Origin: Phapecoctavirus 536P1
Sequence record: OZ035728.1
Reading direction: 5' to 3' (one strand)
DNA length: 64,000 bases
The notes below the pieces were generated by a model that had not been told where the DNA came from, did no database searches, and was given only the letters and a program-made list of their open reading frames with translations. Below are positions 2,407-36,790 of this stretch, piece after piece. Numbering within the stretch: the stretch's first letter is position 1; each line of letters opens with the position of its first letter. A program made the position numbers and the translations under genes.

Positions 2407-4431
2407 ATGAATTTAACAAGACCTAATAGTGCGATAGCCGATCTGGTAGAAGCTACTTATCGAAAACGTCGCAGCTTTGAGGCAGGTTTTACATTACGTA
2501 ATTCCCGTGAAGTTTTGCTGTTAGCAGCAGAAGGGAATTATTACCAATGGAAAGGAACTTTTCCTAAAGTAGTTCCAGCAAACTCTACGCCAGCCACCAC
2601 AGGTGGTATTTCTTCCCTTGCATGGCAAAGTGTTGGGACCGCTGATGATATAGCAATTATCAATGCCAAGTTTACGGCAATGCAGCAACAGATTGATGAT
2701 CTGTCGGAAACAATACCTGAAGCTGGTAAATCGGCTTATCAGATCGCACTTGATAATGGTTTTGTTGGAACAGAAGCACAATGGCTTGCTTCTTTGAAAG
2801 GGGACACTGGTGCTCAACTTAATATTAAAGGATCATTAGCAAGCACTAGTGAACTACCATCCACAGGTAACGTTGCAGGGGATGGTTATATCGTAGGTGA
2901 TGTAATCTACGCTTGGGATGGTTCTGTTTGGAAACTTATTTCTTCTCTTGGACCAGAAGGGAAATCAGCTTATGAGGTATGGTTGGCAGATGGTAATACA
3001 GGATCTGTTTATGATTTTCTTACCTCTATAAAAGGTGATAAAGGTGATGTTGGTCCTACAGGGCCACAGGGAGCACCTGGTGTTAACGCCAACGGTTTTG
3101 ATTATCGTGGGGATTTGCCTTCTACAAGTAACTTACCACAACCTAACTCTGAAAACGTAAGCCAAGCTTATTCTATCAATGGTAATCTTTATGTCTCTAA
3201 CGGGACAGCTTGGGTCAACATGGGTAATATTGTTGGTCCTCAAGGTCCACAAGGTGAGGCAGGTAAAGACGGTCTTGATGGAACAGATGGAGATGAAGGG
3301 AAATCTGCATATCAAAGTTGGCTGGATGCTGGTAATGAAGGGACAGAAGTAGATTTTATTGCCTCACTTAAAGGTCCAAAAGGAGACAAGGGTGATCAAG
3401 GAGAGCGAGGTCCACAAGGTGAACTAGGTCCACAAGGACCAGTGGGTGCAACAGGATCAGGCTTAGAGATTATCGGGGTTCTGAACAGTGAAGCTGAACT
3501 TCCTCCTACTGGAGAAGTAGGCGATGCATATAAAATTAATAATGATTTGTATGTTTGGGTTCAAGATGCTACGGAATGGATGAATGTTGGCAGTCTTGGA
3601 GGAACATCAATTACAGCTAAAGGTCATGTTCCGAACAGTGAAGCTCTCCCTGTTTACAATAACTATGGCGATGCCTACTTAACTGAAGACACCAGTAATC
3701 TTTACATCTATACCTACGATCAAGACACCAATTCCGCATCTTTTGTTGACATGGGAAGTATTAAAGGCGACAAAGGTGAAAAAGGGGATAAAGGAGATAA
3801 GGGTGATCCTGGAACAAACGGAACCAACGGTACTGATGGAACCAACGGTAAGGACGGCGCACAGTGGTTTGTAGCAACAACTAATCCAGTCGCAGGTGAT
3901 GGTGTTATCAATGATTACGCTTTCAATACTACCACTGGAGCAGTGTTTAAGAAAACAGATTCTTCTGCATGGACACTTATAGGAACTCTTCCTAGTATAC
4001 CAGAAGCACCTCAAGACGGCTTGACGTATGGTCGTTCTGATGGGAACTGGATCGAAATATCAGGATCAGATCCTACAGAAGCTATAACACCAACTAGAGT
4101 TACAGCAGGTTTCATGGAACTTGAAACAACTACTGCCAACTCTGGAGCATCTTGGACTCCTTCTGGAACTTCCAATATGTATGTTGTTACAGTAACTGAC
4201 GCTCTGACAGTTGGAGCATGGCCTGGTGTCACTGGATCTACAAAACCTAAAGCATTTTCAGCAATGATTTATTTGATTCAAGATACAACGGGACACACGG
4301 TTACACTAGATGCGTCTTATGGAGCACTGAATGATACAGAAATAGCAACTACTGCTAACGCAGTAACAATTTTGCAATTAACGTATCCTGGTGTGGGTAA
4401 TATCGTGGACATGGTTGTTGTAACACGATAA
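2407..4431 (+). CDS. tail fibre protein with collagen-like G-X-Y repeats
   Basis: 674 aa; runs such as GDKGDVGPTGPQGAPG, GPKGDKGDQGERGPQGELGPQGPVG, GDKGEKGDKGDKGDPGTNGTNGTDG; SD AGGAGAG upstream of ATG. Confidence 0.75.
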   Translation: MNLTRPNSAIADLVEATYRKRRSFEAGFTLRNSREVLLLAAEGNYYQWKGTFPKVVPANSTPATTGGISSLAWQSVGTADDIAIINAKFTAMQQQIDDLSETIPEAGKSAYQIALDNGFVGTEAQWLASLKGDTGAQLNIKGSLASTSELPSTGNVAGDGYIVGDVIYAWDGSVWKLISSLGPEGKSAYEVWLADGNTGSVYDFLTSIKGDKGDVGPTGPQGAPGVNANGFDYRGDLPSTSNLPQPNSENVSQAYSINGNLYVSNGTAWVNMGNIVGPQGPQGEAGKDGLDGTDGDEGKSAYQSWLDAGNEGTEVDFIASLKGPKGDKGDQGERGPQGELGPQGPVGATGSGLEIIGVLNSEAELPPTGEVGDAYKINNDLYVWVQDATEWMNVGSLGGTSITAKGHVPNSEALPVYNNYGDAYLTEDTSNLYIYTYDQDTNSASFVDMGSIKGDKGEKGDKGDKGDPGTNGTNGTDGTNGKDGAQWFVATTNPVAGDGVINDYAFNTTTGAVFKKTDSSAWTLIGTLPSIPEAPQDGLTYGRSDGNWIEISGSDPTEAITPTRVTAGFMELETTTANSGASWTPSGTSNMYVVTVTDALTVGAWPGVTGSTKPKAFSAMIYLIQDTTGHTVTLDASYGALNDTEIATTANAVTILQLTYPGVGNIVDMVVVTR

Positions 4432-32085: not shown

Positions 32086-32277
32086 TTAAAATGGAAGTCT
32101 TTGAAGTTCATCTCCTCCGATATCAAGTAATTTAGCAACATCTCGATCAGAAAGCAACTCTTTTCTTTGTAAAATATCCACAAGGGTTGCAAGAATGTCC
32201 TTAACGTCCCGATCACTGTTCTTCAAAAGTTCTCCTGCCGTCCCTACTCTATCTCCTACAGCAAAATATGTAACCAT
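32086..32277 (-). CDS. hypothetical small protein
   Basis: start at internal ATG with SD AGGAGG (track ORF extends to 32310). Confidence 0.45.
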   Translation of the reverse strand: MVTYFAVGDRVGTAGELLKNSDRDVKDILATLVDILQRKELLSDRDVAKLLDIGGDELQRLPF

Positions 32278-32290
32278 GAAACCTCCTAAG

Positions 32291-32761
32291 TTAATCTGAT
32301 TGCCAACCACTTGCCGTTTTGGTCCATAATCTTTGATTATCTGACCCTCTGAAAGGTTTTGTAGTTGGATTGTTTATTTCATACTTTCCGTCTACAATAA
32401 TGTCAACAAGATTTTTAATATACAAAGGCACTTCCTCAAAAGTATATCCTGTATACACCATTATATCTTTGCTTGACCCATAAACGTCTCTAACCTTTTC
32501 TATAAGGTTTTTAACATTGTAAATATTCTGCGGATCTAATGGCTCTCCTCCTAAAATTGTTAAACCTTTTACAAACGGTCTTGACAAATCTTTTAAAACT
32601 TGCTCTACATTTTCGTGAGTAAATGGTTTCCCATAAGAATAAGACCAGGCTTTTTGGTTAAAACAGCCACGACAACCGTGGCTACAACCACTAACCCAGA
32701 GGGAGCACCTAACTCCCTCGCCATTAATAAGATCTACAGGTTCATATCCTGCAAAATTCAA
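32291..32761 (-). CDS. nrdG: anaerobic ribonucleotide reductase activating protein (radical SAM)
   Basis: 156 aa; YEPVDLINGEGVRCSLWVSGCSHGCRGCFN matches NrdG N-terminus with CxxxCxxC cluster; TTG start overlapping nrdD stop. Confidence 0.85.
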   Translation of the reverse strand: MNFAGYEPVDLINGEGVRCSLWVSGCSHGCRGCFNQKAWSYSYGKPFTHENVEQVLKDLSRPFVKGLTILGGEPLDPQNIYNVKNLIEKVRDVYGSSKDIMVYTGYTFEEVPLYIKNLVDIIVDGKYEINNPTTKPFRGSDNQRLWTKTASGWQSD

Positions 32762-33729
32762 AGATGTTTCTCCCTTTGCAAAACTTCCTGCATTTTACCT
32801 TTGTTGTAAGGGCGTGAATTAGGGGCAGAAAGATACCCTGACACACGTCTAACTACAGAAATAGTTTCTTCTTCATGGTTGCCACAATCAGGACACTCAA
32901 ACCCTTTAGCCGTTGCCTTAAATTCTCCATGAAAACCACACTTAAAGCATTGATCCACGGGCTGATTAATACCAAAATAGTGAATATGTTCATAAGCGTA
33001 GTCTACTAAAGTCTCCAAAGCTTCTAAGTTATTCTTTAAGTTTGGTGTTTCTACGTAACTTATGTTACCACCATTACTAATCTGTGCAAAACCTGCTTCA
33101 TAATCCCATTTTTCAAAAGGATTTGTTACCAACCATACAGGTTGATGAAAAGAGTTAGTAAGATAGTCTCTTTCTACCAAACCTGGGTATTTTTCATTTA
33201 AAGCTGTTGCAAACTTATAGCACAAGGATTCTGCTGGAGTTCCATAGAGACTAAACGCCAGCTTAGATCGCTCTTTAAACACAGCACACACATCTTTCAT
33301 ATGTTGCAGAATGTTTTTACCAAGTTCCTTTTTATCTTTTTCTTCTGGATAAAGGATTTCCAAAGCTTCAGCAAGACCTACATAACCAATACTAATAGAA
33401 GCATAACCACCTTCAAACAAAACACCAATTTCATCATTGGCATTTAAACGCGCTAAAGCCCCTTCCATGAAAAGAATAGGGTTTTCAGATGCTTTGGTAT
33501 GTCTGATACGGTTTACACGTAGCATGTGAGCATCGTAGGCTATCTCCATATGTTTATTAAGAAGATCGGTGAAAGATTCTCCTTTACTTCTCGCTTCCGC
33601 AGCAATCAGAGGCAAGTTGATAGAAACTACTCCAAGGTTGAATCGTCCATCATATTTTTCTCCTTGCTCTGTTGCATAGTATGACAAGAAACTTCTACAC
33701 ATTATGTTCAAAGTGGCTCGCAAGGCCAC
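32758..33729 (-). CDS. nrdD: anaerobic ribonucleoside-triphosphate reductase, C-terminal part (downstream exon/fragment)
   Basis: Zn-ribbon CFKCG...CPDCG and glycyl-radical motif RRVSGYL at C-terminus; first residues of the ORF are probably insertion-derived. Confidence 0.75.
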   Translation of the reverse strand: MALRATLNIMCRSFLSYYATEQGEKYDGRFNLGVVSINLPLIAAEARSKGESFTDLLNKHMEIAYDAHMLRVNRIRHTKASENPILFMEGALARLNANDEIGVLFEGGYASISIGYVGLAEALEILYPEEKDKKELGKNILQHMKDVCAVFKERSKLAFSLYGTPAESLCYKFATALNEKYPGLVERDYLTNSFHQPVWLVTNPFEKWDYEAGFAQISNGGNISYVETPNLKNNLEALETLVDYAYEHIHYFGINQPVDQCFKCGFHGEFKATAKGFECPDCGNHEEETISVVRRVSGYLSAPNSRPYNKGKMQEVLQREKHL

Positions 33730-34520
33730 TCCCGCACCATTACGTGCTGCTGCATGTCACCATGCAGATCAGACTATATCTTCATGCTTAAAGCATGTCT
33801 ACCATTTGGGGTGTCATAGGCTTACACCCTACGCTGCTACATTCATCACAGCTAGTCGTTAGGCATTTCGTAACAGAACTCATAATCATAATTATTTGGT
33901 GCTCCTTGTTTTAAGATTGCAGATATTCTTTTTCTGTCCAACCCTAAAGCGTCAGCACAACATCTCAGACTTTTAAAGTAAAAAACTTCACCAGTAGCCT
34001 TATGAGTAGCTTTTACACTGTGACACCTTGTGTAGAAAGCATAACAGTTATTATCGTAACCCTCTTGCGTGTTGTCTGGACAAGATCCCCACTCAAGATT
34101 GTATACACTGTTGTCTTTCCTATTGTCACCTTTATGCTTCACATAAGGTAAATTGTCTGGATTGGGTAAAAACGCTTCAGCTACAAGTCTGTGCACCCGA
34201 AAGCAAACAGTTTTCTTGTTTTTACGTATTCTGACAAGTTGGTATCCTGTGTTTATTTCTTCCCACGAGCGAAGGATTCTTTCATCCTTATACCTGGTAC
34301 AATAAACATTTCCAAGCTCGTCAATTTCATACCCTTCAAAATCACGAATTTGTTTTCTCATATCAGTACCCCCCTTCTTCTGTGTTGGGAGTTCTGTTAC
34401 GTTTAGCACGGGATTGTCTCTGTTGAGAGTTCCCCCGTTTAGGCAGATTTTACATGAGCAGTTATAGTTTACCCATACTCGTAACAGTGCCATCTGCTGA
34501 TCCCGTAACTTCTTTGTTCA
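33730..34520 (-). mobile_element. insertion splitting nrdD: putative group I intron carrying an HNH homing endonuclease ORF (boundaries approximate)
   Basis: nrdD reading frame broken into 293-aa and 323-aa pieces that together give about 600 aa; about 120 nt of GC-rich, hairpin-rich non-coding sequence lies between HNH stop and downstream nrdD piece. Confidence 0.45.
33852..34361 (-). CDS. HNH homing endonuclease (intron-encoded candidate)
   Basis: start at internal ATG (MRKQIRDFEGYEIDELGNVY); VHRLVAEAF and KHKGDNRKDNSVYNLEWGS HNH-type blocks. Confidence 0.6.
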   Translation of the reverse strand: MRKQIRDFEGYEIDELGNVYCTRYKDERILRSWEEINTGYQLVRIRKNKKTVCFRVHRLVAEAFLPNPDNLPYVKHKGDNRKDNSVYNLEWGSCPDNTQEGYDNNCYAFYTRCHSVKATHKATGEVFYFKSLRCCADALGLDRKRISAILKQGAPNNYDYEFCYEMPND

Positions 34521-35343
34521 AAGGAACAGAAATAAAATCTGGATAAATACGATCAGCACAACATGCCAAAGCTTGTTGCTTAAGGTCATAGTTAGGATCA
34601 CTAGGTTTCATGTTAACACCTTCTTGTAAAAAGAAAATAACTTTAGGGAATACAGGCGTTACATGATCTTTGCCTAGACCGTTACTATGCACTTTAAGAT
34701 AGTTAGCTGTAATCATTCTGCCAAAAACAGAGGTATCCAGACCCATACTGATTGTAATAAAAGGAGATTGTCCATTAACACTCATTAAAGTATTAACCTG
34801 ATACAAGAGAGTTTGCATAGCATCATATACATCTTGTTCGGTCATTTCTAGGGCTTCTTTCCTTGCATAACAACCGTAGCGACGTTTGGTTATCTCCATG
34901 TTTTTAAGGAAACTAGCTTCAACATAAGGACTAAGACCTTTATCAATGTGCGCACACGTCTGACCTCCATACTGACTGGAGGCAACAGCTTGGATAATTT
35001 GAGTTAGCACTGTGGTAGCTACCCCAATAGATTTTGGTTTTTCTATCTGTGCGGCTCCGATCTTAAAACCATTCTCTAACATATCTTGATAATTAACAAG
35101 ACAACAGTTTGTAAGAGGAGAGAGTAGATAATCCAAGTCGTGAATATGTCCAAAACCTTCTGTATGCCATTCTGACAAGTTTTTTGGCAGTATCTGTGTC
35201 ATTGCCATATGTTTGCTTAAAATCCCCGCCAAGAGATCCCTATGCGTGTTAACGAGGTGGGAAGGTTTGTTTGCATTCTCTCTAGTGTATGTTTCTGAAG
35301 TGCGATCTAAAAAAGAAAAAACATCTTGGTACAAATCTTTCAT
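34462..35343 (-). CDS. nrdD: anaerobic ribonucleoside-triphosphate reductase, N-terminal part (upstream exon/fragment; 3' end of ORF runs into insertion)
   Basis: 293-aa ORF upstream of and co-linear with C-terminal nrdD piece; SD AAGGA. Confidence 0.6.
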   Translation of the reverse strand: MKDLYQDVFSFLDRTSETYTRENANKPSHLVNTHRDLLAGILSKHMAMTQILPKNLSEWHTEGFGHIHDLDYLLSPLTNCCLVNYQDMLENGFKIGAAQIEKPKSIGVATTVLTQIIQAVASSQYGGQTCAHIDKGLSPYVEASFLKNMEITKRRYGCYARKEALEMTEQDVYDAMQTLLYQVNTLMSVNGQSPFITISMGLDTSVFGRMITANYLKVHSNGLGKDHVTPVFPKVIFFLQEGVNMKPSDPNYDLKQQALACCADRIYPDFISVPLNKEVTGSADGTVTSMGKL

Positions 35344-35418
35344 TATTAATCCTTATTTTGTGAGTAGAACTATTATTCTACCTCTTCCAACCGAAAAAAG
35401 CTTTGAGGAAAATCAAAA

Positions 35419-35439
35419 AAGGCGCAAAGTGCGCCTTTA
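35419..35439 (-). terminator. intrinsic terminator after the 448-aa gene
   Basis: AAAGGCGCACTTTGCGCCTTT hairpin followed by TTTTTGATTTT on minus strand. Confidence 0.6.
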
Positions 35440-35443
35440 AGTT

Positions 35444-36790
35444 TTATTGTTTGGAGAGGAATTGTCTTCCCATAATCTTACCGTTCTTTACAGCGGTCCC
35501 ATCATGTCCATTATAATCCCAAGTTCCGTCGATATTACGCAAGAAGCTATCACGAACAGTGTAGGCTTTACCGTTCTCTACTTTACTTTCTTCCACAATG
35601 ATCGCCATAACAAGCTTATTTTCAATTTCGGTAGTAACCGATTCTTTGATACCCTCTGTAACTTCACGATCATATTGGATATAAACTCGCTCCTCGGTTA
35701 CTTGCACGTCTACCACATTTTTAAATGTGTAGGTCTGTTGTGTAGTGTAGAGGACACGAACGACACTCTTCTTACCTACTGGCGGCTTCTGACGACGTTT
35801 GCGGTAACGTGGAGATGGGTTAAGTTTAATATAACCTACAATATCTGATCCATCTCCAGAGTGGCTCCAATAAAATGTCTCTGCCAAACCTTTTCCTTGG
35901 TCCCCATTTCGAAAAAGAACATTAACAGGACCATCACAAGGGCGTCTACCTCCGATGTGTGCTTGGTATTTTGCTGTTCTTGGGAGAACAAAATATTCTT
36001 CAATCTGCCATTCACTATCGTATTTCTCCCATTCGAAGTGGTTGGCTTTACATACTTCTAAAACACCATTTTTGTAACGGACTTGAACAAAGTCTTCACA
36101 AGGTTGAATACCTGTATTAGGAATATAGGTAGGCTCTGTGTCTTCTGGTTCAAAAGTCTCTTTTTGTTGTTCCACATCTTCCACTTTTCTTACATGCTTA
36201 GTATAAAACATATCTTTAAACTCCTGCGCTTCAACCTCAACTGCAAATTCATGTTCTCTGACAGCCGGAGGCACAAGGCTTCCACACTCAAGATGCAGCG
36301 CATCCAGACCTGCCATTTTATCGTAAAAGATAACTTTTCGATACTTCTTACCGTCTTCTGGAATAGCAGGGTCTACTCGTTTAAGACGGGAAGCATCGCT
36401 TTTAGTCCAAAAACTCTTCCCTGTTGTATTATTGAAAGTAGTAATCATTTCTTCAATTTCTTCTTCAGAAAGGTTACTAGTGTCTGTGTAAACATCTTCA
36501 ATTTTTAGCATTTTAGTTTTCTTAAGAATTAAATCTAGCATTGCATCTCCTGTAAAACGTAGCTCATTATCTCCTACTGTCGGCTCTCCAGAAAATTCAT
36601 TGGTCCCGACTGTATGACAGATGTATGGAAAATTTGTGCAACCGTGTAAAAGAGCATATTGTCCTGTAAGTTTAGGATCTGTCTCTTTAGTCCAACCATA
36701 TGCAATTTCAATAGCTTTGCAAAGCCTATCGAACAAGCCCCGATTGTTTGCCGCTGTTACCAAATCTTGCTTATGTGTATATACATTCAT
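35444..36790 (-). CDS. hypothetical protein (448 aa)
   Basis: long ORF with SD GAGGAGGG; no motif recognised. Confidence 0.65.
   Translation of the reverse strand: MNVYTHKQDLVTAANNRGLFDRLCKAIEIAYGWTKETDPKLTGQYALLHGCTNFPYICHTVGTNEFSGEPTVGDNELRFTGDAMLDLILKKTKMLKIEDVYTDTSNLSEEEIEEMITTFNNTTGKSFWTKSDASRLKRVDPAIPEDGKKYRKVIFYDKMAGLDALHLECGSLVPPAVREHEFAVEVEAQEFKDMFYTKHVRKVEDVEQQKETFEPEDTEPTYIPNTGIQPCEDFVQVRYKNGVLEVCKANHFEWEKYDSEWQIEEYFVLPRTAKYQAHIGGRRPCDGPVNVLFRNGDQGKGLAETFYWSHSGDGSDIVGYIKLNPSPRYRKRRQKPPVGKKSVVRVLYTTQQTYTFKNVVDVQVTEERVYIQYDREVTEGIKESVTTEIENKLVMAIIVEESKVENGKAYTVRDSFLRNIDGTWDYNGHDGTAVKNGKIMGRQFLSKQ

Follow-up and report, generated by a model that had tools for sequence, protein, structure and literature searches.

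A mobile IA2 group I intron with an I-HmuI-like HNH gene very probably interrupts nrdD in Phapecoctavirus 536P1

The gene for the anaerobic ribonucleotide reductase, nrdD, is read as two open reading frames (ORFs) in Phapecoctavirus 536P1 (sequence record OZ035728.1), and an ORF for an HNH protein lies between them. Does this locus hold one gene that is restored by RNA splicing, a gene that is genuinely split, or a gene that has been inactivated? The stretch of 64,000 nucleotides (nt) that was analysed, hereafter the window, belongs to a coliphage resembling phAPEC8 (Phapecoctavirus). Positions are those of the window, all genes of the locus are on its minus strand, and intron nt n corresponds to window position 34471-n. 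The reading as two nrdD ORFs flanking an HNH ORF, given in an earlier note on this DNA together with the proposal of a probable group I intron, is confirmed by protein profiles: ORF 35343..34462 (-) matches positions 1-263 of the 562 of Pfam NRDD (E 6.6e-69), and ORF 33729..32758 (-) matches positions 263-562 together with Gly_radical (E 8.9e-88). The nrdD region is 98.9% identical to that of Escherichia phage nepoznato (Phapecoctavirus), and many sister phages, including phAPEC8, match the window in two segments with a gap of about 770 nt between them. On the evidence given below, it is very probable that nrdD is interrupted by a mobile group I intron of subgroup IA2 which carries an I-HmuI-like HNH gene, is removed by splicing and spreads by homing.

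Relative to the uninterrupted nrdD of phAPEC8, the window has exactly one extra block, 34470..33700 (771 nt), and the arrangement of two ORFs with an HNH gene between them is therefore not a chance pattern. Exon 1 ends in ...ACG AGU AUG GGU (T S M G), with its last base at 34471; the intron begins with AAACUAUAAC and ends in ...CAUAAUG at 33700; and exon 2 begins at 33699 with UGU AGA AGU, in which UGU encodes the Cys of GCRSF. The spliced junction reads ...AUGGGU joined to UGUAGAAG... (34471/33699), and the intronless junction GGGU/UGU is recreated by this register alone. Alignment to intact NrdD of phAPEC8 and of T4, which the earlier note had named as a way of finding the exon junction, places the insertion in phase 0 between codons 291 and 292. 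The joined exons form an in-frame coding sequence (CDS) of 1815 nt for a NrdD of 604 amino acids, which is identical to phAPEC8 NrdD at 602 of 604 residues and aligns end to end with T4 NrdD (PDB 1H78; E 1e-167). In the conserved PMG-CRSF loop, Gly precedes and Cys follows the junction, and this Cys corresponds to C290 of T4 when counted along the alignment; we take it to be the catalytic thiyl-radical cysteine. In the unspliced RNA the frame of exon 1 stops two codons into the intron (GKL-stop), and an intein was rejected because of this stop and because the HNH ORF is provided with a start codon and a ribosome-binding site of its own.

The inserted block can be folded into a group I intron with a complete set of helices. 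Exon 1 ends in U (position -1), and the last intron base, at 33700, is G (omega G). In P1, the exon sequence AUGGGU (34476..34471) pairs with the guide GCUCAU (nt 12-17, 34459..34454), with a wobble between U-1 and G12, and this pairing is kept in five of six homologues. In P10, the guide segment CUAUA (nt 4-8, 34467..34463) pairs with the start of exon 2, UGUAG (33699..33695), and it co-varies with exon 2, as in Vibrio phage F97 (UUGGCA/UGCCGA) and Felixounavirus JH2 (CUCUAUA/UGUAGAG). P3 joins UCUGCC (nt 24-29) to GGUAGA (nt 668-673, 33803..33798) without a gap, P4 is formed by nt 34-38 with 58-62, P5 by nt 42-45 with 50-53, and P6 by G64 C65 with G607 C608. A perfect P6a helix of 13 base pairs (nt 70-82 with 590-602, 33881..33869) closes the loop that contains the HNH ORF; its sequence differs in F97, JH2, the T-even phage U5 and an Aeromonas phage intron, yet it stays paired in all of them. 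Subgroup IA2 is defined by two further helices, P7.1 and P7.2, which lie between P7 and P3' and are linked by G-U-A (PMC3428280). The window intron contains P7.1, the GUA linker and P7.2, with compensatory changes in both helices, and P2 is absent from it; these features, which fit that description, assign it to IA2. As a separate observation, the sequence of the 5' splice-site context, AGUAUGGGU, is found a second time in exon 1, uninterrupted, at 34746..34741 (-) (codons I-S-M-G, followed by LDTS), so complementarity in P1 alone does not fix the position of the intron. The string AGTATGGGT also has a second, uninterrupted copy in exon 1 and is unsuitable as a junction anchor.

These borders and helices revise the extent of the insertion. 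The ends given in the earlier note, 33730-34520, follow the ends of ORFs and are off by 30-50 nt each, and the HNH gene, described there as free-standing, is contained in the P6a loop of the intron. Of the single stretch of about 120 nt of GC-rich, hairpin-rich non-coding sequence that had been reported, the composition and the hairpins stand, while its extent does not: the intron has two non-coding blocks, a 5' block (34470..34362, 109 nt) and a 3' block (33851..33700, 152 nt), and the figure of 120 nt is the length of the 3' block as far as an in-frame GTG. The G+C content of the 3' block is 48%, compared with 39% in the window as a whole, and the block is made up of the hairpins P7.1, P7.2, P8, P9, P9.1 and P9.2.

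A search with covariance models, also proposed beforehand, returned a match of the 3' core (33989..33750, -) to Rfam RF00028 with 39.3 bits (E 7.6e-8), where the gathering score is 50. This low score is explained by the ORF of 510 nt in the P6a loop, which splits the core and leaves its 5' third about 500 nt from the rest. The ORF-less copy in phage phi92, a ribozyme of 279 nt with 99.3% identity, scores 70.6 bits (E 3.4e-17); it equals nt 1-100 and 592-771 of the window intron apart from one indel, one mismatch and a G run that is one base shorter. Here, cmscan puts P3-P6 exactly where the model read from the sequence has them. For the window itself, a cmscan placement of P3-P6 inside the HNH ORF was rejected, since nt 24-82 give a gap-free P3 and canonical P4-P6 that covary. 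Relatives with a contiguous core also score well (105.3 bits for the nrdD intron of U5, 85.3 bits for the terminase intron of Aeromonas phage 4L372D), whereas all ORF-interrupted homologues reach only 33-39 bits.

Covariation was assessed on an alignment of the window, HMD-6, F97 and JH2 introns, trimmed of their ORFs, together with the U5 and Aeromonas introns. For the structure drawn from these same six sequences, standard pairs occupy 94.6% of cells compared with 80.7% in shuffles, compensatory changes on both sides are present at 31 of 73 pairs compared with 14.8, and none of 500 shuffles reaches the observed value on any covariation measure. If the 3' partners are slid by 1-3 columns, pairing falls to 32-44%. 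Compensatory pairs are spread over P3 (3/6), P4 (2/5), P7.1 (3/5), P7.2 (4/6), P8 (5/5), P9 (3/7) and P9.2 (4/5), and P6a also shows such changes; P6 and P7 are invariant across the six introns and thus uninformative. RNAalifold, to which the model was not supplied, recovers the same P1, P3, P4, P5, P6, P6a, P7.1, P7.2, P8, P9 and P9.2, while P7, which forms a pseudoknot with P3, lies beyond what this program can draw. The probable group I intron of the earlier note is therefore strengthened by borders that are exact to the base, U-1 and the terminal G, the match of the 3' core to RF00028 and a covarying model from P1 to P10, and the insertion is supported as a group I intron that would be spliced.

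What does the ORF within the intron encode? It spans 510 nt, most likely 34361..33852 with boundaries as annotated in relatives, and is preceded by a strong Shine-Dalgarno sequence, AAGGGGGG. A longer ORF of 213 amino acids, starting at ATG 34493, was rejected because it overlaps exon 1 and relatives annotate the ORF of 169 amino acids with its strong Shine-Dalgarno sequence. Residues 3-166 of the shorter product align with residues 4-172 of I-HmuI (PDB 1U3E), that is over the full length, with E 8.7e-9, and PHROG 59 'HNH endonuclease' is matched with E 3.8e-34. The protein of about 170 amino acids has the expected layout of two domains, an N-terminal nuclease and a C-terminal NUMOD/helix-turn-helix module for DNA binding. 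Of the HNH (beta-beta-alpha-metal) motif of I-HmuI, the catalytic His75 as well as Asn87 and Asn96 have conserved counterparts in the window protein and in four orthologues. The position of Asp74, which we take from the I-HmuI structure to be a metal ligand, is occupied by Lys in the window, HMD-6, JH2 and JSE and by Cys in F97. In comparison with the HMD-6 orthologue, 48 synonymous and 16 non-synonymous codon differences were counted, which indicates that the protein is under purifying selection, and the ORF is intact in all copies that contain it. Its last five codons and stop (GAA AUG CCU AAC GAC UAG; EMPND-stop) double as P6'-J6/7-P7, and this end is conserved in the window, HMD-6, F97 and JSE. 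By its likeness to I-HmuI, the protein is a putative homing endonuclease of the same type, with a predicted activity and target.

The start of this ORF is itself structured. A local hairpin predicted by RNAfold covers its Shine-Dalgarno sequence and AUG, with a free energy of -14.0 kcal/mol compared with -5.8 +/- 2.3 for shuffles, and HMD-6 retains it through changed bases (ACUCCU/AGGAGU). By analogy with the endonucleases of T4 introns (PMC2988022), this hairpin probably holds down translation of the endonuclease. The 5' strand of P6a has two alternative partners, the local hairpin that buries the start and the distal stretch of 13 nt at the end of the ORF, and this alternative pairing is a possible switch that would couple endonuclease translation to ribozyme folding.

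Three allele states are found at the nrdD site among Stephanstirmvirinae. The site is empty in phAPEC8 and most Phapecoctavirus records, the intronless alleles being about 98-99% identical in their exons. Ten records (nieznany, nepoznato, DIJ07P2, VEcB, arall, phiWec187 and SD2), some of them duplicates, have the intron with its ORF at an identity of at least 99%. The intron without the ORF is present in about 19 records, including phi92, PD06, ECGD1 and Justusliebigvirus alia. The window and phi92 represent two genera and share 72% identity in exon 1 and 78% in exon 2, compared with 99.3% in the ribozyme; positions +1..+38 of exon 2 are 100% identical and the remainder of exon 2 is 77% identical. 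These first 38 nt are identical in VEcB as well. Between the window and phAPEC8, 34 nt differ among the 1815 of the CDS, and ten silent differences are packed into positions +4..+48 of exon 2, while none occurs in -1..-209; one of the silent changes in the exon 2 tract (CGU to AGA) improves P10. Presence and absence of the block, 99% identity of the intron against 72-78% of the exons, and the tract of 38 nt indicate recent homing, presumably accompanied by co-conversion on one side only, in the 3' exon. In the ORF-less copies, the tip of P6a is still the Shine-Dalgarno sequence of the HNH gene that they lack, which makes loss of the ORF by deletion likelier than an ancestral ORF-less state. 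In the phi92 locus (L012, NC_023693), the intron lies at 1501-1779, and the trinucleotide CUG is common to both borders of the missing block. With regard to database labels, more than 12 UNVERIFIED 'Campylobacter phage' records (MG0656xx; A1xx/C2/C3) carry the coliphage nrdD intron at 85-99% identity; these are classed as Vequintavirus or resemble Justusliebigvirus, and their host labels look doubtful. The same holds for 'Acinetobacter phage ABPW7', whose nrdD is 99% identical to that of coliphages.

From membership of this intron family, we infer a course of events in which nrdD and nrdG would be transcribed as one pre-mRNA and the intron RNA would fold within it. P1 would present the U of exon 1 opposite G12 of the guide, and the P3-P8 and P4-P6 domains would form the core, with P7.1, P7.2, P9.1 and P9.2 at its periphery. 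An external guanosine would attack after the U of exon 1, after which the freed exon 1 would attack after the terminal G, aided by pairing of P10 with UGUAG of exon 2, and an uninterrupted mRNA for the NrdD of 604 amino acids would result. In homing, repair from an intron-bearing genome would transfer the intron and, with it, a short part of exon 2.

Several observations weigh against the reading as a spliced and mobile intron. At gathering threshold, an Rfam scan of the whole window returned no family, and the window's own RF00028 score lies below the curated value; covariation was evaluated on six sequences only, from which the structure had itself been drawn. The Pfam scores of the HNH protein for HNH_3 and the I-HmuI NUMOD-like module are slightly below their cut-offs (for I-HmuI_NUMOD-like, residues 166-195 of the extended ORF, 25.2 bits with a cut-off of 27), and together with the Lys at the Asp74 position they suggest that the enzyme may work differently or weakly. 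Finally, separate translation of the exon 2 ORF is conceivable, and within P9.1-P9.2 the annotators of phi92 and nepoznato placed a TTG start with a GGAG site for ribosome binding. The scores and the substitution in the HNH protein lend themselves to an alternative in which the ribozyme splices but the protein is no longer a homing endonuclease, and in which the element has become a passenger, domesticated or in decay, that is heading for the ORF-less state of phi92. ORF-less derivatives that retain the orphan Shine-Dalgarno sequence are frequent and show that loss of the ORF occurs. However, Lys or Cys at this position is shared with orthologues that are 35-50% identical, which makes it a feature of the clade and no recent lesion, and the excess of synonymous over non-synonymous differences from HMD-6, the intact ORF in every copy that contains one, and an element identity of 99% across genera with a co-conversion tract, pointing to very recent mobility, all count against this alternative. 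An inactive endonuclease is accordingly judged improbable.

Separate translation of the exons raises another alternative, namely that nrdD is genuinely split and that two unspliced fragments assemble into an active enzyme. Some phage ribonucleotide reductase genes are indeed split by free-standing endonuclease genes without introns (PMC3653736), most relatives in GenBank are annotated with two nrdD CDSs, and within the intron, ahead of exon 2, there is an in-frame TTG or GTG accompanied by a GGAG motif. Yet on both sides of the ORF lie the parts of a complete ribozyme whose covariation shows constraint, which would be unexpected if the ribozyme were never used; the break is one residue before the catalytic Cys, in a tightly conserved loop; the exon junction restores the frame exactly; and a close T-even relative is experimentally known to be self-splicing (PMC2988022). 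A split gene is thus very doubtful. Inactivation of nrdD by a selfish endonuclease cassette is barely credible: the reading frame is interrupted and the anaerobic enzyme is probably dispensable in laboratory conditions, but both exons are intact, with two amino-acid differences from the uninterrupted orthologue and neither frameshifts nor stops, the arrangement is maintained in many independent phage lineages, and the downstream nrdG is intact.

The intron of the window has relatives at the same site, AUGGGU / UGY-Cys, where pairs of an intron and an HNH gene are found in Vequintavirinae, Felixounavirus JH2, Krischvirus JSE and Vibrio phage F97. The Vequintavirinae copies (HMD-6, JEP1 and others) are about 85% identical. 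The relatives at this site have homologous ribozymes and HNH proteins (35-90% identity), with the ORF in P6a and usually ending in EMPND-stop over P7; they have diverged in sequence, with introns of 742-819 nt, and GenBank labels give only an HNH homing endonuclease between two nrdD CDSs. The phi92 intron at this site lacks the HNH gene of about 490 nt that the window has, and its GenBank record (NC_023693) annotates a 'spliced variant' of nrdD. Krischvirus JSE (L013, NC_012740; 1501-2257) is related to T4 and nevertheless has the intron and HNH gene at the Cys codon instead of the classical T4 nrdD intron; for JSE, a review of T4-family genomes counts only a possible relic of an intron-encoded endonuclease and mentions only a gene 43 intron. 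In Vibrio phage F97 (L008, OZ195764; 35-4169), nrdD is apparently in four annotated pieces. The locus has an HNH gene of 930 nt at 812-1741 and, separate from it, the same-site homologue at 2512-3018; a further break, at 3788/3789, has no spacer. Outside nrdD, Aeromonas phage 4L372D (L009, NC_048771; 2889-3131) has an unannotated ORF-less group I intron, with the RF00028 score given above, which splits the large terminase gene into two CDSs; its core is 68% identical to that of the window intron and, unlike the latter, it has P2.

The earlier note had compared the locus with the intron-interrupted nrdD of T4-like phages, and this likeness holds for the kind of element, the host gene and the homology of the ribozymes; it fails for the insertion site and the endonuclease. 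The T-even nrdD (sunY) intron is a homologous IA2 ribozyme in the same host gene, also with P7.1 and P7.2, and experimentally known as self-splicing (PMC2988022). The 5' 73 nt and the 3' core of the window intron are 77-89% identical to introns of T4-like phages, and the guide GCUCAU is the same, pairing with AUGAGU in T-even phages and with AUGGGU in the window. In contrast, the T-even intron is inserted in codon 180, after the first base (phase 1), whereas the window intron lies about 110 codons downstream, in phase 0; in phage U5, the PMGCRSF motif is uninterrupted and the intron ORF follows P9. The T-even intron ORF encodes I-TevII, a GIY-YIG enzyme (PMC2988022) placed after P9, while the window has an HNH gene in P6a. 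Also among the closest known systems are those of I-HmuI type in DNA polymerase genes (I-HmuI of SPO1, I-HmuII of SP82, I-BasI of Bastille, I-PfoP3I of Pf-WMP3), whose introns belong to the same subgroup. Like the window intron, those of Pf-WMP3, PhiI and W31 have no P2, and their ORF starts in P6a and runs into P7 (PMC3428280). I-HmuI has the same protein length and two-domain layout as the window protein, with a different host gene and target site.

The identical guide, the closely related cores and the unrelated endonuclease genes in different loops suggest, tentatively, that a single ribozyme lineage relocated inside nrdD, to a second guide-matching site, and gained different endonuclease genes. 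Such a move might have occurred by ectopic transposition into a guide-complementary site, either by illegitimate repair or by reverse splicing, with an endonuclease gene captured independently afterwards, and at least six lineages of phages, ranging from coliphages to those of Vibrio, might then have received the element. A guide match of six bases is weak alone, and the second such site in exon 1 is uninterrupted. The proposal is regarded as fairly unlikely.

In the searched literature, which left out the phi92 genome paper, no description of this nrdD intron was found for Phapecoctavirus, rV5-like, Felix O1-like or phi92 phages, and none of the same-site pairs of nrdD intron and HNH gene in Vequintavirinae, JH2, JSE and F97. 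The Felix O1 paper reports that no introns were found, and the papers on rV5 and LL12 mention only terminase or polymerase introns; several GenBank records already label the ORF as an HNH homing endonuclease. The element is a newly documented case of a thoroughly known class of selfish phage elements, and the current understanding of group I introns is unchanged by it. Its value lies in part in annotation: nepoznato, nieznany, VEcB and many others file the locus as two 'NrdD-like' genes and a hypothetical protein, where one joined nrdD CDS with an intron feature and a homing-endonuclease gene would be the better description. Additionally, the locus offers a well-resolved life cycle of a homing endonuclease within one subfamily (empty site, intron with ORF, intron after ORF loss), a measurable one-sided co-conversion tract, an insertion exactly at the catalytic cysteine codon, and a ribozyme of the T4 nrdD lineage which occupies a second nrdD site across very different phages. 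The coordinates of the features are listed in Table 1.

Table 1. Features of the nrdD locus in the window; intron positions are counted from the first intron nucleotide.
Feature	Window coordinates	Strand	Intron nt or sequence	Basis
nrdD exon 1, codons 1-291	34471..35343	-		Pfam NRDD 1-263; border from alignment with intronless phAPEC8
nrdD exon 2, codons 292-604	32758..33699	-		Pfam NRDD 263-562 and Gly_radical
Group I (IA2) intron, 771 nt	33700..34470	-		Block missing from phAPEC8; RF00028 match
Putative intron-encoded HNH homing endonuclease gene, 169 amino acids, I-HmuI-like	33852..34361	-		I-HmuI and PHROG 59 matches
nrdG (activating enzyme)	32291..32761	-		Pfam Fer4_12 and Radical_SAM; annotated nrdG in relatives
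Probable co-conversion tract in exon 2	33652..33699	-		Clustered silent differences; identity with phi92 and VEcB
phAPEC8-type intronless nrdD junction DNA			TGTCGTTCCTTTTTGTCG	
Spliced-junction sequence of the window			TGTAGAAGTTTCTTGTCA	
P1 and P10 region	34454..34476	-		Read from sequence
P3 5' strand UCUGCC, J3/4, P4-P5-P5'-P4'	34409..34447	-	nt 24-29 (P3 5' strand); nt 34-62 (P4-P5-P5'-P4')	Covariation; cmscan on phi92 copy
P6 (G64 C65) and P6a 5' strand	34389..34407	-	CGUAACAGAACUC (P6a 5' strand, nt 70-82)	Pairing with nt 590-602
Local hairpin over HNH Shine-Dalgarno GGGGGG and AUG; 5' strand common with P6a	34359..34401	-		RNAfold
Ribozyme 3' half	33700..33881	-		Rfam alignment, compensatory changes, RNAalifold
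P6a' and P6'	33881..33863	-		
P7, GACUA with UAGUC	33857..33853 with 33776..33772	-	nt 614-618 with 695-699	
P7.1	33852..33833	-	nt 619-638	
GUA linker between P7.1 and P7.2		-	nt 639-641	
P7.2	33829..33809	-	nt 642-662	
P8	33796..33784	-	nt 675-687	
P9, GUGA tetraloop	33767..33750	-	nt 704-721	
P9.1	33747..33734	-	nt 724-737	
P9.2	33729..33713	-	nt 742-758	
Terminal G	33700	-	nt 771	

Around the intron, nrdG lies directly downstream of nrdD and overlaps its stop. Elsewhere in the window, neither a second group I core nor an HNH paralogue nor a tRNA was found. A scan of 32200..35600 for promoters and terminators gave sites that are no more numerous than in shuffled controls and no evidence of an internal promoter for the HNH gene. 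Just upstream of nrdD, at 35418-35438, a perfect GC-rich hairpin of 9 base pairs is followed by a T run and is terminator-like on both strands. Its Rfam match to STnc40 is weak and below threshold (26 bits, E 0.15), and it is probably the terminator of the upstream gene.

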